The position numbers and the translations under genes are program-made. From a virus (taxonomy: Duplodnaviria > Heunggongvirae > Uroviricota > Caudoviricetes): a stretch of 45,350 nucleotides of DNA. The notes beneath the pieces were generated by a model that saw only the letters and a list, made by a program, of their open reading frames with translations, was not told the DNA's origin and searched no databases. Each line of letters opens with the position of its first letter. The stretch's first letter is position 1. The stretch lies in the IMG/VR virus record IMGVR_UViG_2541047917_000003; one strand, 5' to 3'. Positions 14,587-37,099 of this stretch are shown here, in pieces.

Positions 14587-18267
<3,681 letters not shown>

Positions 18268-18293
<26 letters not shown>

Positions 18294-18813
18294 TCAGCAA
18301 CCCCGGTATCAGTTCATCCAGCGCGGCTGCTTTGTTCATGGCTTTGATGATATCCCGTTTCAGGAAATCAACATGTCGGTTTTCCAGTTCCGGAAAACGC
18401 CGCTGCACCGACAGGGGGATCCCGTCGAGAATACTGGCAATTTCACCTGCGATCCGCGACAACACGAAAGTACAGAATGCGGTTTCCACCACTTCAGCGG
18501 AGTCTCTGGCATTCTTCAGTTCCTGTGCGTCGGCCTGCGCACGCGTAAGTCGATGGCGTTCGTACTCAATAGTCCCTGGCTGGAGATCTGCCTCGCTGGC
18601 CTGCCGCAGTTCTTCAACCTCCCGGCGCAGCTTTTCGTTCTCAATTTCAGCATCCCTTTCGGCATACCATTTTATGACGGCGGCAGAGTCATAAAGCACC
18701 TCATTACCCTTGCCACCGCCTCGCAGAACGGGCATTCCCTGTTCCTGCCAGTTCTGAATGGTACGGATACTCGCACCGAAAATGTCAGCCAGCTGCTTTT
18801 TGTTGACTTCCAT
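18268..18813 (-). CDS. nu1: Terminase small subunit Nu1
   Basis: 181-aa ORF starting MEVNKKQLADIFGASIRTIQNWQEQGMPV (winged-HTH), directly downstream of cos. Confidence 0.95.
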
Positions 18814-18990: not shown

Positions 18991-19002
18991 AGGTCGCCGC
19001 CC
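18991..19002. other. cosN cohesive-end site (12-nt overhang sequence)
   Basis: AGGTCGCCGCCC on + strand is the reverse complement of the lambda 5'-GGGCGGCGACCT overhang; ~180 nt upstream of Nu1 as in lambda. Confidence 0.8.
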
Positions 19003-19201
19003 CGTAACCTGTCGGATCGCCGGAAAGGACCCGCAAAATGATAATAATTATCATCTACATGTCACAACGTGCATCTACGCCATCAAACCACGTCAAATAA
19101 TCAATTATGACGCAGGTATCGTATTAATTGATCTGCATCAACTTAACGTAAAAAAAACTTCAGACAATACAAATCAGCAACACAGAATACGGGACAACCT
19201 C

Positions 19202-19435
19202 ATGTCAACGAAGAACAGAACCCGCAGAACAACAACCCGCAACATCCGCTTTCCTAACCAAATGATTGAACAAATTAACATCGCTCTTGTTCAAAAAGGG
19301 TCCGGGAATTTCTCAGCCTGGGTCATTGAAGCCTGCCGCCGGAGACTGTGCTCAGAAAAAAGAGTTTCGCCTGAAGCAAACAAAGAAAAGAGTGACATTA
19401 CTGAATTGCTCAGAAAACAGGTTAGACCAGATTGA
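19202..19435 (+). CDS. Small basic ribbon-helix-helix-like protein (hypothetical)
   Basis: 77-aa ORF; basic N-terminus then RNIRFPNQMIEQINIALVQKGSGNFSAWVIEACRRRL, a strand-helix-helix pattern typical of Arc/CopG-type RHH proteins; opposite strand to the packaging genes. Confidence 0.5.
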   Translation: MSTKNRTRRTTTRNIRFPNQMIEQINIALVQKGSGNFSAWVIEACRRRLCSEKRVSPEANKEKSDITELLRKQVRPD

Positions 19436-19492
19436 AGCAATCTAGATAATCGTGCAGACTACGCCCCCTCATATCACATGGAAGGTACTACA

Positions 19493-19903
19493 ATGGCTCA
19501 GGTTGCCATTTTTAAACAAATATTCGATAAAGTGCGAAATAATTTAAACTATCACTGGTTTTATTCTGAACTAAAACGTCACAATGTCTCACATTACATT
19601 TACTATTTAGCCACAGAGAATATTCATCTTGTTCTTGAAAACGATAATACGGTTTTAATAAAAGGACAGGGTAAGGTTGTAAATGTAAGATTTTCAAAAA
19701 ATAAATGCCTTATAGAAGCCACCTTAAAAGGATTCAAATCAGGAGAGTTATCATTTTACGAATACAGGAAAAATCTTGCTACAGCAGGGGTTTTCAGATG
19801 GATTACAAATATCCACGAAAACAAAAGGTATTACTATACCTTTGATAATTCATTACTCTTTACTGAGAACATTCAGAACACTACACAAATATTTCCGCAC
19901 TAA
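19493..19903 (+). CDS. DUF1398 family protein (YbcV-like)
   Basis: ORF 19478..19903; likely start [11 protein letters not shown] with SD ggaagg. Strong resemblance, from memory, to DLP12 YbcV (...[15 protein letters not shown]...[27 protein letters not shown]). AT-rich. Confidence 0.65.
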
Positions 19904-20473
19904 ATCATAACGTCCGGTTTCTTCCGTGCCAGAACCGGACTCGCTGGCATGATGAAATATGTGTACCCGGTAACCCCGGTGTGCATCGTTTTTGATTATT
20001 CCCGCACACTCGCGCAGAAGGAGTTCCCCGTCGGGCTACGGTCTCTGTTAATACGGGAATACGGCGACGATACAGCGCATGATGTGTCAGGCTTGAATAC
20101 CTTTATCCTTTAAAAGGGATATCAGTTAAGTTATCCCGTGTAGGGTATAAGCCATTATCAAAGCCACTCTGTAGGGAATGGCTTTTGTGATGGCATCACT
20201 TACTCTTTACGCTGCTATCCCACTCATCCCGGAATTTTGATGGGTTATTGAAACCTTCTGCTGACATAACAACTCCTTCAATGTTTGGCTGAAATTAGGA
20301 TGTCTTTCCATCAGTCCGCCACCACAAAGAATCCTTTTTGCCATAAGGCAGGAGGTTCATCTTTCAGTGGCTGCCGGTGTTATTTCCCCACTTACTGGCT
20401 TGGGTTGTTTCGTGGTACTGCCGTTAACTGGTGGCGCACAGATTTAGTTAAATCCGTTCTCGCCTGAACTATC

Positions 20474-20503
20474 TTTTACATACCCGGATTGTGGGGATGT
20501 AAA
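20474..20503. repeat. ~30-bp element TTTTACATACCCGGATTGTGGGGATGTAAA, one of a small repeat family
   Basis: Near-identical copy at 20922-20953 inside the KilA-N ORF (encodes ILHPSQSRYVKT); longer related hairpin-containing elements at ~20128-20195 and ~20481-20552 in the 700-bp non-coding stretch. Confidence 0.6.
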
Positions 20504-20612
20504 TCACGGTTTCATTATCAAGCCCACCCGTAGATGGGCTTTGTAATGGATAGCCGTTGCTCAGTTCTAGTAATGCTTTGATTTTTTCGATAACGCAGTT
20601 TTGCGTTTGCCA

Positions 20613-21134
20613 TCAGCACGCGATATCGAGAGTCAACTGCAGTTGCTCGCGCCAGTACTCAACATTTGCTTCAATAACCGGCTTATCCCATCGCCAGCGA
20701 GCCATCTCTCTTGCCCCATTGCTGGCTTTTGATTTCCGGTCATCGCGAATGCGACATGCTTGCTCATATTTCTGCTGCTCAGTCAGTTCACCGCGAAGCA
20801 GACTATCAATGTGCAGGTCGCACCACACAGCAAAACGAGCATCACACCAACGGGCAAATGCAACTGAAAGTTTTGGATGTAGCCACGTACCACCACCCCT
20901 GTCCTTTCGTGCCTTGCTGGTTTTTACATACCTCGATTGTGAGGGATGTAAAATTTGAGATTCTTTCCCGGTCAACGCTTCGTCTAAAGCACGAACGTAT
21001 TCAAGCGTTTCTGCCAAACGCATCCAGTTATCAATGCGTTTCCCAAATCTCTCAGCAACACCTGTGACGTTGATCCAACCATCAGTGTTGAAACTGACAA
21101 TTTCACCTTTGTAATTAAGTGGCACGATATTCAT
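20613..21134 (-). CDS. KilA-N domain protein
   Basis: 173-aa ORF; motif GGTWLHPKLSVAFARWCDARFAVWCD typical of the KilA-N DNA-binding domain; downstream of Rz. Confidence 0.7.
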   Translation of the reverse strand: MNIVPLNYKGEIVSFNTDGWINVTGVAERFGKRIDNWMRLAETLEYVRALDEALTGKESQILHPSQSRYVKTSKARKDRGGGTWLHPKLSVAFARWCDARFAVWCDLHIDSLLRGELTEQQKYEQACRIRDDRKSKASNGAREMARWRWDKPVIEANVEYWREQLQLTLDIAC

Positions 21135-21338: not shown

Positions 21339-21797
21339 TTATTTCAGACATTGCGTCCTGATGTACTCCTGCAGGTAGTTAACCTGCGCGGTTATCCTGT
21401 CGATTCCACTTCGGAGACGGTAATAATTGAGTTCAGCATCTGCTGTAAGTCTTGGGCTTTCTCCATCGCCCATGCCGCTGGCTCCGGTCGTTGACTTTGC
21501 ACAGGTGGCGGCGACTTGCAGGCGCTTACGCCCAGCAGAAACATCAGCACGGAGACTTTCGATAGTCGCGTTAGCATCAGCAAGCTCCTTTGTGTATCTT
21601 GCGTCGAGTTCTGCTACATCACGTTGACGCTTCCGCATGTCAGCGATGGTGGCGTTCGCCTTCTCCAGTTCACTGGCCTTGTTATCGCGCTGCTCTTTGT
21701 AGGCGATTGCGTTATCACGGTAATGATTAACAGCCCATGACAGGCAGACGATGATGCAGATAACCAGAGCATAAATAATCGCGGCGACTCTGCTCAC
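21339..21797 (-). CDS. Rz: Spanin inner-membrane subunit Rz (i-spanin)
   Basis: ORF 21339..21812; likely GTG start overlapping the R stop (GTGA), giving (M)[30 protein letters not shown]..., close to lambda Rz N-terminus; TM helix plus coiled coil. Confidence 0.85.
21392..21583 (-). CDS. Rz1: Spanin outer-membrane lipoprotein Rz1 (o-spanin), embedded in Rz
   Basis: 63-aa ORF in the +1 frame inside Rz; signal peptide with lipobox (LLGVSAC) and Pro-rich segment. Confidence 0.75.
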
Positions 21798-22327
21798 TGA
21801 TCTATCCCCCAACAGGCTAATGCGCTTTCCTGGTCACGACGAATAACCTGTCCATAGCAGTTATTTGAACGTATGCGGCAATCGCGCCCACCATCTTTTA
21901 TCCACCAGCGAATCGCCTCGCATGCACCTTTACGATCACCGGCATTCAGCCGCTTATAAAACGTCGACGGGAAACACTTACCGGGGCCAATGTTATAGGG
22001 ACAAAATGACGCGATACCCGCTTTCTGTGGTTCGGTCAGTGGCACTTTAATATTGCGCTCCACCCATGCCAGCGCCTTATCCCGTTCAATGGCGTTAACC
22101 TGGTCGCATTTTTCCTTCGACAGTTTCATACCGGGAAAAACGGGTTTTCCATCCACCACCGTGGCACCCCGACAGATGGTCCAGATGCCGGAACCATCGC
22201 GGTATGCCGTTGTGTGGTTACCTTCTTTTTCATCCAGAAACTGGTCGAGAATATCAGGCGCAGGCGCACCGACGGCAATCAGTGCCAGAACGGCAGCCGA
22301 CAGGCCGTATCTGATTTTTGCGTTCAT
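21794..22327 (-). CDS. R: SAR endolysin (GH24 lysozyme with signal-anchor-release N-terminus)
   Basis: 177-aa ORF; N-terminal hydrophobic segment [16 protein letters not shown] then T4-lysozyme-like catalytic region (EG.HTTAYRD.SG.WTIC.G); resembles Qin/phage-21-type lysozymes, not lambda R. Confidence 0.9.
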
Positions 22328-36862: not shown

Positions 36863-36934
36863 GCGCGGCGTTACCGCATACCAATAACGCTTCACTCGAG
36901 GCGTTTTTCGTTATGTATAAATAAGGAGCACACC

Positions 36935-37099
36935 ATGCAATATGCCATTGCAGGGTGGCCTGTTGCTGGCTGCCCTTCCGAATCTTTACTTGAACGAATC
37001 ACCCGTAAATTACGTGACGGATGGAAACGCCTTATCGACATACTTAATCAGCCAGGAGTCCCAAAAAATGGATCAAACACTTATGGCTATCCAGACTAA
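36935..37099 (+). CDS. cIII: CIII (FtsH inhibitor stabilising CII)
   Basis: 54-aa [57 protein letters not shown], matching recalled lambda CIII; below ORF-track cutoff; start 7 nt before ORF 36942. Confidence 0.85.
   Translation: MQYAIAGWPVAGCPSESLLERITRKLRDGWKRLIDILNQPGVPKNGSNTYGYPD

Follow-up and report, generated by a model that had tools for sequence, protein, structure and literature searches.

The window, that is, the whole stretch of 45,350 nucleotides analysed here (IMG/VR record IMGVR_UViG_2541047917_000003), is a lambda-like E. coli prophage, apparently complete and not cryptic. At the junction of its lysis and packaging genes, with the lysis genes, Nu1 and TerL all on the minus strand, lie two plus-strand open reading frames coding for proteins of 77 and 136 amino acids, separated by a gap of 57 nt (Table 1). 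An earlier reading of this DNA, made from the sequence alone, had described these frames as an AT-rich, cos-proximal pair opposite to the packaging genes, and its coordinates, lengths and strand agree with ours. The 12-nt cohesive end AGGTCGCCGCCC is the reverse complement of lambda GGGCGGCGACCT, and the end of the lambda record (J02459 position 48502) aligned to position 19003 of the window. It follows from this alignment and the cohesive end that the ATG of the first gene, which we will call ynfO, lies 200 bp from cosN; in lambda the homologous gene (48139-48303) also starts 200 bp from cosN. The location of cosN, as read from the letters, puts the cassette at a right end of the lambda type. 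The GC content of the second gene (0.32-0.34) and of ynfO (about 0.41-0.42) is lower than that of the flanks (0.50-0.56), which is typical for acquired accessory genes. Between cos and ynfO there is also a perfect 17-bp palindrome, ATGATAATAATTATCAT, that is kept in lambda/HK629 with one change and could be a protein-binding site.

Table 1. Coordinates of the two genes and of surrounding features in the window.
Feature	Position	Strand	Remarks
TerL (large terminase)	16368-18293	-	packaging gene
Nu1	18268-18813	-	packaging gene
cosN cohesive end AGGTCGCCGCCC, 12 nt	18991-19002	.	read directly in sequence
Perfect 17-bp palindrome ATGATAATAATTATCAT	19038-19054	.	between cos and ynfO
ynfO-type gene, 77-aa YlcI/YnfO (DUF3950) protein	19202-19435	+	Pfam, NCBIfam, AF2, dN/dS
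DUF1398 leader, promoter-like element	19417-19492	+	conserved across paralogues
PdhR-box-like GGTTAGACC	19420-19428	+	within DUF1398 leader
TTGAAG	19432-19437	+	overlaps ynfO stop codon; 17-nt spacer follows
CAGACT	19455-19460	+	after 17-nt spacer in leader
RBS GGAAGG	19480-19485	+	upstream of 136-aa start
DUF1398 gene (YdfO/YbcV/YcgX family), 136 aa, soluble, basic	19493-19903	+	Pfam, PDB 2HH8
KilA-N gene	20613-21134	-	
Rz	21339-21812	-	lysis
Lysozyme	21794-22327	-	lysis

Identity and conservation of the two genes

The product of the first gene matches Pfam DUF3950 (PF13132; E 2e-20, 72.8 bits against a curated cut-off of 25) and NCBIfam NF041551 (35.2 bits against a cut-off of 30), and the identical protein is named YlcI/YnfO family in RefSeq. 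In the family alignment, residues ~12-50 (nt 19235-19351) form a conserved core, whereas the C-terminal tail varies. Genuine members, when aligned, share the motif [K/R]-x-I-R-F-P, followed by a helix, a short turn and N-F-S-A-W-V-[IL]-[ED]-A-C, and the spacing IRFP-x(13-20)-NFSAWV[IL][ED]AC is common to the family. The N-terminus is indeed basic, as noted before, with 6 K/R among the first 17 residues, and the protein has a pI of 10.9. Over the first 52 codons, the dN/dS between lambda-type and Stx-type copies is 0.08-0.12 (dS 0.8-1.4); the conservation of the 5' half of the gene is, therefore, at the protein level and not a by-product of its proximity to cos.

An AF2 model built on the family alignment contains helices at residues 19-32 and 37-53 (pLDDT 81-87 for residues 11-50). 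No beta strand is formed in this monomer model, and the basic IRFP segment (residues 15-18) occupies the position expected for the strand of a ribbon-helix-helix (RHH) protein. Nearly all of the best 50 Foldseek matches of the model in the PDB are RHH proteins (StnY, CdbA, NikR, TacA, MazE9, Arc, CopG, ParD, AtaR, MatP and AmrZ among them), every one with an E value of at least 0.68; such non-significant values are expected for a domain of 40 residues. Sequence and profile searches of YnfO against the PDB returned no relevant match and no solved RHH protein. Of the RHH-like character that the sequence-only reading had ascribed to this protein, the two well-placed helices and the RHH-dominated matches were thus recovered, whereas the strand and a significant match were not. 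In size and basic N-terminus YnfO resembles the RHH repressors (Arc and Mnt of P22, CopG, the N-domain of NikR, ParD/TacA-type antitoxin domains); further likenesses are the modelled two-helix hairpin, reminiscent of a helix-turn-helix, the IRFP segment preceding it at the place expected for the strand, and a G-S-G-N turn ahead of helix 2. It differs from them in that no significant sequence or profile match links it to any solved member. YnfO is plausibly a RHH DNA-binding protein, the best, if unproven, reading of its fold, and it would most likely act as a small, basic, dimeric RHH transcription factor.

No sigma-70-like promoter was found on the plus strand upstream of ynfO. Beyond the coding sequence, no k-mer is common to the DNA preceding ynfO in the lambda type and in the Stx type, for which reason a conserved auto-operator for YnfO was rejected. 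The predicted DNA-reading strands of the lambda-type and Stx-type proteins are identical, yet upstream motifs are not shared. In satellite-like islands, the 5' regions of the related DUF3950 genes contain either two copies of the palindrome GGTACGTACC or direct repeats in arrays; RHH proteins use operators of this kind.

The second protein belongs to DUF1398 (PF07166), as had been recognised from the sequence, with an E value of 3e-43 (147.1 bits against a cut-off of 22; positions 1-119 of the 119 of the profile), and it matches PDB 2HH8, the NMR structure of E. coli YdfO, with an E value of 2.9e-67 over residues 1-135. An alternative start (ATG at 19478) would give a protein of 141 aa, but the sequence ATGG[C/A]TCAGGT at the start of the 136-aa form is kept in all paralogues and the upstream ATG is not, so that the 136-aa start is considered correct. 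The protein (pI 9.4) has no transmembrane or hydrophobic segment (maximum KD(19) 0.39). Fold matches obtained with a single-sequence AF2 model of this protein were discarded (pLDDT 51, TM 0.31 to 2HH8). Two labels in circulation, "head protein" (PHROG 413) and "putative envelope protein" (for lambdap78, the lambda homologue), are unsupported, because the gene is read against the late operon and its product has no hydrophobic segment. The finding that lambdap78 is non-essential in CRISPRi mapping (PMC10695390) also counts against such virion or envelope labels. Distant homologues outside the Enterobacteriaceae, in Pseudomonas, Bacillus-like, actinobacterial and other assemblies, were dismissed as contamination, as these matches trace to the 3.5-kb lambda nanopore control DNA.

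Phage copies of the DUF1398 gene have dN/dS values of 0.2-0.37 and the chromosomal ycgX orthologues values of 0.04-0.09. Both ynfO and the DUF1398 gene are real genes under purifying selection. The literature that we searched assigns no function to YnfO, YlcI, YdfO, YbcV or YcgX, and a 2025 study could give ycgX none. Expression of ydfO in K-12 is strongly and conditionally induced (PMC4077768) and host-responsive (PMC4077768; PMC11430063), and a passage of the former study, citing earlier work, relates that over-expression of YdfO raised peroxide resistance, i.e., that it was protective rather than toxic. From the retention of DUF1398 genes in decayed prophages and the existence of a strongly constrained, domesticated chromosomal member, we infer that DUF1398 probably has a role in host physiology, one that may be related to stress.

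A conserved leader and the separability of the two genes

The DUF1398 gene is preceded by a leader of ~75 nt with the consensus GGTnAGACC, TTGAAG, a 17-nt spacer, CAnACT and a ribosome-binding site; in the window, this leader overlaps the final codons of ynfO, the stop codon included. The same leader occurs upstream of Qin ydfO, of DLP12/lambda ybcV, of the DUF1398 gene of phage L044 and of the solitary ycgX of Escherichia spp. and Citrobacter, and it is thus kept among paralogues whose proteins share only 44-53% identity. A structured RNA leader was considered and rejected: RNAalifold predicted only a 5-bp hairpin with no covariation and Rfam gave no match in the region. With no supported RNA structure, the conservation of the leader is read as acting at the DNA level, as a promoter or operator. 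In K-12, the sequences corresponding to the GGT...ACC box are identical in every base to sites reported for PdhR, the pyruvate sensor of the host, by genomic SELEX, in which PdhR bound them, and the ybcV mRNA was down 10-fold in a pdhR mutant (PMC7660256), so that the DLP12 copy is reportedly activated by PdhR. These features suggest that the leader may be an activator-dependent sigma-70 promoter.

[quoted passage not shown] Relative to the Qin-type copy, the YnfO of the window is 96-97% identical and its DUF1398 protein 76%. Qin is cryptic, in contrast to the apparently complete prophage of the window, and the DUF1398 allele of the window, which differs by 24% from K-12 YdfO, occurs in identical form in the viable isolated phages ev099, PhiR49_1, Kati and Chlobot, all of which carry the cassette. 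The identical ynfO-DUF1398 pair is also annotated by RefSeq in E. coli S1-CAM-01-C. Lambda has, besides the ynfO homologue, the homologous DUF1398 gene lambdap78 with the same leader. In lambda and DLP12 (ylcI-ybcW-ybcV), however, ~690 nt lie between the two; some 620 bp of this distance, which encode ybcW/lambdap79 on the opposite, late strand, have no counterpart in the window. The YnfO tail of lambda and DLP12 is also different and shorter. According to a 2026 preprint, the Vulcan NADase defence is triggered by lambdap79, and lambda escapers have lost lambdap79 through recombination with Qin (bioRxiv 10.64898/2026.09.04.749371). The window has the same layout lacking lambdap79 that this recombination gives to the escapers. 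The E. coli ycgX, of the same family (44% identity) and with the same upstream leader as the DUF1398 gene of the window, differs in being solitary, with no adjacent DUF3950 or phage genes, and in being under stronger purifying selection.

Among 5,426 complete E. coli genomes, 4,187 contain DNA related to ynfO and 5,376 contain relatives of the DUF1398 gene; in the phage collection, 155 records contain DUF3950 and 43 contain DUF1398. Each gene also occurs by itself. More than 100 records of Stx-type phages have DUF3950, adjoining HNH-TerS-TerL, and no DUF1398; DUF3950 is further found in satellite-like islands of the PICI type (integrase/primase/capsid), and it closes chromosomal operons in which a TonB-dependent receptor gene or cytochrome bd genes precede it. 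Conversely, L044, a phage with a different terminase, has DUF1398 without ynfO, and the ycgX-type genes lack a DUF3950 neighbour within 5 kb in both of their chromosomal settings, beside bluR and iraM in E. coli and beside different genes in Citrobacter, with no small upstream partner in either. The Qin-type lineage is different: a long-tailed YnfO and DUF1398 are found together, with a spacer of 56-59 nt, at 77 of the 78 IMG/VR loci, the sole unpaired one being due to an IS5 insertion. Two DUF1398 alleles, 24% apart in sequence, are found with the same long tail in this lineage. Simple linkage explains this tight pairing equally well, although lineage-specific functional coupling may be involved. 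A cluster of 233-aa proteins (P0134, 761 members) in which the two genes appear to be fused by read-through is an artefact of gene calling with genetic code 4, as the in-frame open reading frames are still separated by a single TGA in the DNA. The variation of the spacer among the 77 loci also means that the same-frame relation of the two frames is not conserved. Judged by this distribution, ynfO and the DUF1398 gene are separable units that abut here.

These observations bear directly on the proposal in the sequence-only reading that the pair has the layout of a toxin-antitoxin or addiction module. In its full form this would be a type II module with YnfO as an RHH antitoxin that acts both as repressor of the operon and, via its C-terminal tail, as neutraliser of a DUF1398 toxin. 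The small RHH gene followed at 57 nt by a second small gene would fit such a module, as would the conserved N-terminal core and variable tail of the YnfO family and the nearly invariable position of long-tailed YnfO before DUF1398 in the Qin-type loci. Nevertheless, we consider it very improbable. The putative toxin exists as the solitary chromosomal ycgX, under the strong constraint given above and with no RHH partner upstream, as well as without ynfO in L044; the putative antitoxin stands alone in the Stx-type records, islands and chromosomal operons; and in lambda and DLP12 a gene on the opposite strand comes between the two. A bicistronic pair is, therefore, not conserved across the homologues. 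The leader of DUF1398 accompanies it in all contexts, including that of the solitary ycgX, whereas upstream of ynfO no promoter-like site was found on the plus strand, so that there is no sign of a single autoregulated promoter for both genes. The pairing of one long YnfO tail with two DUF1398 alleles as divergent as those mentioned also counts against such a module. Neither protein matches a toxin family in Pfam, and in PADLOC-DB 2.0, the defence database in which the pair was searched, YnfO has no match and DUF1398 only a non-significant one to Csx23 (E 0.023, 12.7 bits). The protective effect related for YdfO and the non-essentiality of lambdap78 point the same way. The DUF1398 assignment of the sequence-only reading is supported, and its RHH assignment qualitatively so; its toxin-antitoxin interpretation is not, as the genes are separable both ways, DUF1398 has a leader of its own and significant defence matches are lacking.

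It has also to be considered that the prophage might express the cassette in the lysogen for defence or superinfection exclusion. A position at the lysis-packaging junction, on the opposite strand and with low GC, is typical of accessory genes expressed in lysogens, and the cassette is near-ubiquitous in E. coli prophages. However, the best PADLOC match is the Csx23 one just mentioned, no enzymatic or sensor domain is recognised in either protein, ycgX, a paralogue of the DUF1398 gene, has become a single domesticated gene of the chromosome beside bluR/iraM, and the literature searched contains no link of these genes to defence. A defence function thus seems distinctly unlikely, if less so than a toxin-antitoxin one.

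Packaging boundary, satellite islands and the meaning of the cassette

A further explanation starts from the location of ynfO. It could be tied to packaging, with an RHH protein that binds close to cos or to where the packaging genes begin, and with DUF1398 as an unrelated passenger; YnfO may then block leaky transcription of the terminase genes in the lysogen, or it may take part in a packaging conflict between phage and satellite. A DUF3950 gene lies divergently beside the first packaging gene in two unrelated systems, the Nu1/A system of lambda and the HNH-TerS-TerL system of the Stx-type phages, in the latter only 41 bp from HNH, and the homology shared between phages of different cosB/Nu1 types begins at cosN and extends through ynfO. 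Moreover, satellite-like islands encode, in addition to a plain DUF3950 protein, DUF3950 fused to the N-terminal HTH of TerS, which is 66% identical to the TerS of a Stx-type phage and 53% identical to the TerS of the island itself. Against this, ynfO runs counter to the late operon, DUF3950 is also found after TonB-dependent receptor and cytochrome bd genes in chromosomes, and the upstream regions of the lambda and Stx types have no DNA motif in common. Lambda can be packaged in vitro with purified terminase, IHF and proheads, and packaging works on minimal cos fragments as well, which likewise counts against this explanation. We consider a tie to packaging rather unlikely. Slightly more doubtful still is a broader version, in which the DUF3950 RHH protein would be a conserved "gatekeeper" at the boundary of the packaging module of lambdoid prophages, one that binds DNA at cos or where the packaging genes begin and has been copied by satellites, as RHH-only proteins and as RHH-TerS(HTH) fusions, to sense or interfere with packaging by the helper, and in which, separately, the DUF1398 leader would mark a moron regulon wired to the host through PdhR.

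On balance, it seems moderately probable that the cassette is a Qin-type (ynfO-ydfO) accessory region composed of two independent moron units, a RHH transcription factor and a host-regulated DUF1398 gene, read against the late operon. The DUF1398 gene would then be a self-contained, AT-rich moron that travels with its own promoter-like leader. Since both genes oppose the direction of the late operon, they would be expected to be on in the resident prophage, under host control, and not during virion production. Read-through from ynfO into the DUF1398 gene is possible, as there is no terminator between them.

The cassette consists of two real, very common and already catalogued genes of lambda-like E. 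coli prophages. In this sense the pair is ordinary: its members are known y-genes (ynfO/ylcI and ydfO/ybcV/ycgX) that occur in most E. coli genomes and in lambda. What is gained is that an apparent pair is really two units, that DUF1398 genes carry a PdhR-linked, promoter-like leader wherever they are found, and that the labels "head protein" and "envelope protein" are without support. The DUF3950 domain, putatively of the RHH type, turns up repeatedly beside packaging modules and among satellite islands, in one case joined to a DNA-binding domain of TerS, which provides a testable lead concerning a gene of the best-studied phage to which no function is assigned. If the gatekeeper reading were true, ynfO would be part of a previously unrecognised layer of conflict between phages and satellites, or of terminase silencing.

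The element upstream of DUF1398

A conserved element of about 75 nt (see table) occupies approximately positions -75 to -1 relative to the DUF1398 start codon in comparison loci L018, L020, L044, L046-L053 and L059. It is kept before every DUF1398 paralogue, including the solitary ycgX of Citrobacter, and is more conserved than the DUF1398 proteins themselves. The K-12 copies of this element are published binding sites of PdhR, the host pyruvate sensor (PMC7660256).

Features of the prophage window and of the comparison loci
Feature	Location	Strand	Remarks
DUF1398 upstream element, ~75 nt	window 19417-19492		parts GGTnAGACC, TTGAAG, CAnACT, RBS
Perfect 17-bp palindrome ATGATAATAATTATCAT	window 19038-19054		between cos region and ynfO
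KilA-N + ORF11CD3 protein, 173 aa	window 20613-21134	- (late strand)	between Rz and cassette
Lambda cIII thermoregulator element	window 36922-36980	+	Rfam, 88.5 bits
DUF3950 proteins of PICI-like islands (120-129 aa, and 60 aa at L007 5590-5772)	L007 6001-6363, 5590-5772; L011 4714-5103

Layout and surroundings of the cassette

In contrast to lambda (47042-48303), the prophage has no ybcW/lambdap79 at 19202-19903; this gene is reported to activate the Vulcan NADase defence (bioRxiv 10.64898/2026.09.04.749371). The prophage's junction there is the one that lambda escapers gained on recombining with Qin, the K-12 prophage carrying ynfO-ydfO. A long-tailed ynfO without DUF1398 was encountered at a single IMG/VR locus (L105, 438-1454), where an IS5-family transposase gene lies directly downstream of it.

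On the cos side, the palindrome overlaps a promoter-like match (19065-19038, - strand) directed to cos and Nu1, the first packaging gene. On the other side, RefSeq annotates no gene in the approximately 700 bp at 19904-20612, and phage ev099, an isolated phage with the same cassette, is shorter by about 360 bp in the matching region. A 54-aa ORF in this interval (19949-20113) is annotated as hypothetical in ev099 and gave no family match. The KilA-N + ORF11CD3 protein encoded beyond it weakly matches the candidate defence entry PDC-S22 (PADLOC, E 1.2e-5); this gene is also found with DUF3950 in Stx-type phages. The Rfam match to the cIII thermoregulator confirmed that the prophage possesses a lambda-type early-left region.

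DUF3950 in PICI-like islands

The PICI-like islands of L007 and L011 carry an integrase/AlpA/primase/TerS/capsid gene set. Their 120-129-aa protein combines a DUF3950 (predicted RHH) domain with only the N-terminal HTH of a small terminase subunit, and this HTH shares 66% identity with TerS of a Stx-type phage (residues 2-54) versus 53% with TerS of the same island. Direct-repeat arrays (GTTTAACAC, four copies; GTGCACAAACAC, three copies) lie upstream of the genes for the longer protein, whereas two GGTACGTACC palindromes precede the 60-aa gene. At L007 8040-9776 the island integrase immediately adjoins the HNH gene of an Stx-type prophage, together with a truncated 61-aa TerS fragment and the prophage's own DUF3950 gene, which suggests an insertion site for the island within, or adjacent to, the packaging genes of that prophage.

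Artefacts and contamination in databases

Public protein sets contain a 233-aa "DUF3950+DUF1398 fusion" cluster (P0134; 761 members). We rejected a real fusion: it is a gene-calling artefact in which genetic code 4 reads an in-frame TGA as Trp, and this stop codon is still in the DNA (L003 1274-1975).

Dozens of assemblies from unrelated phyla (L022-L058), some labelled as plasmids, contain a ~3.5-kb lambda right-end fragment, for example the 3566-bp "plasmid unnamed1" of Arcanobacterium hippocoleae (CP136411.1). This fragment is contaminating nanopore control DNA, which is probably why YlcI/YnfO genes have been reported from genomes outside the enterobacteria.
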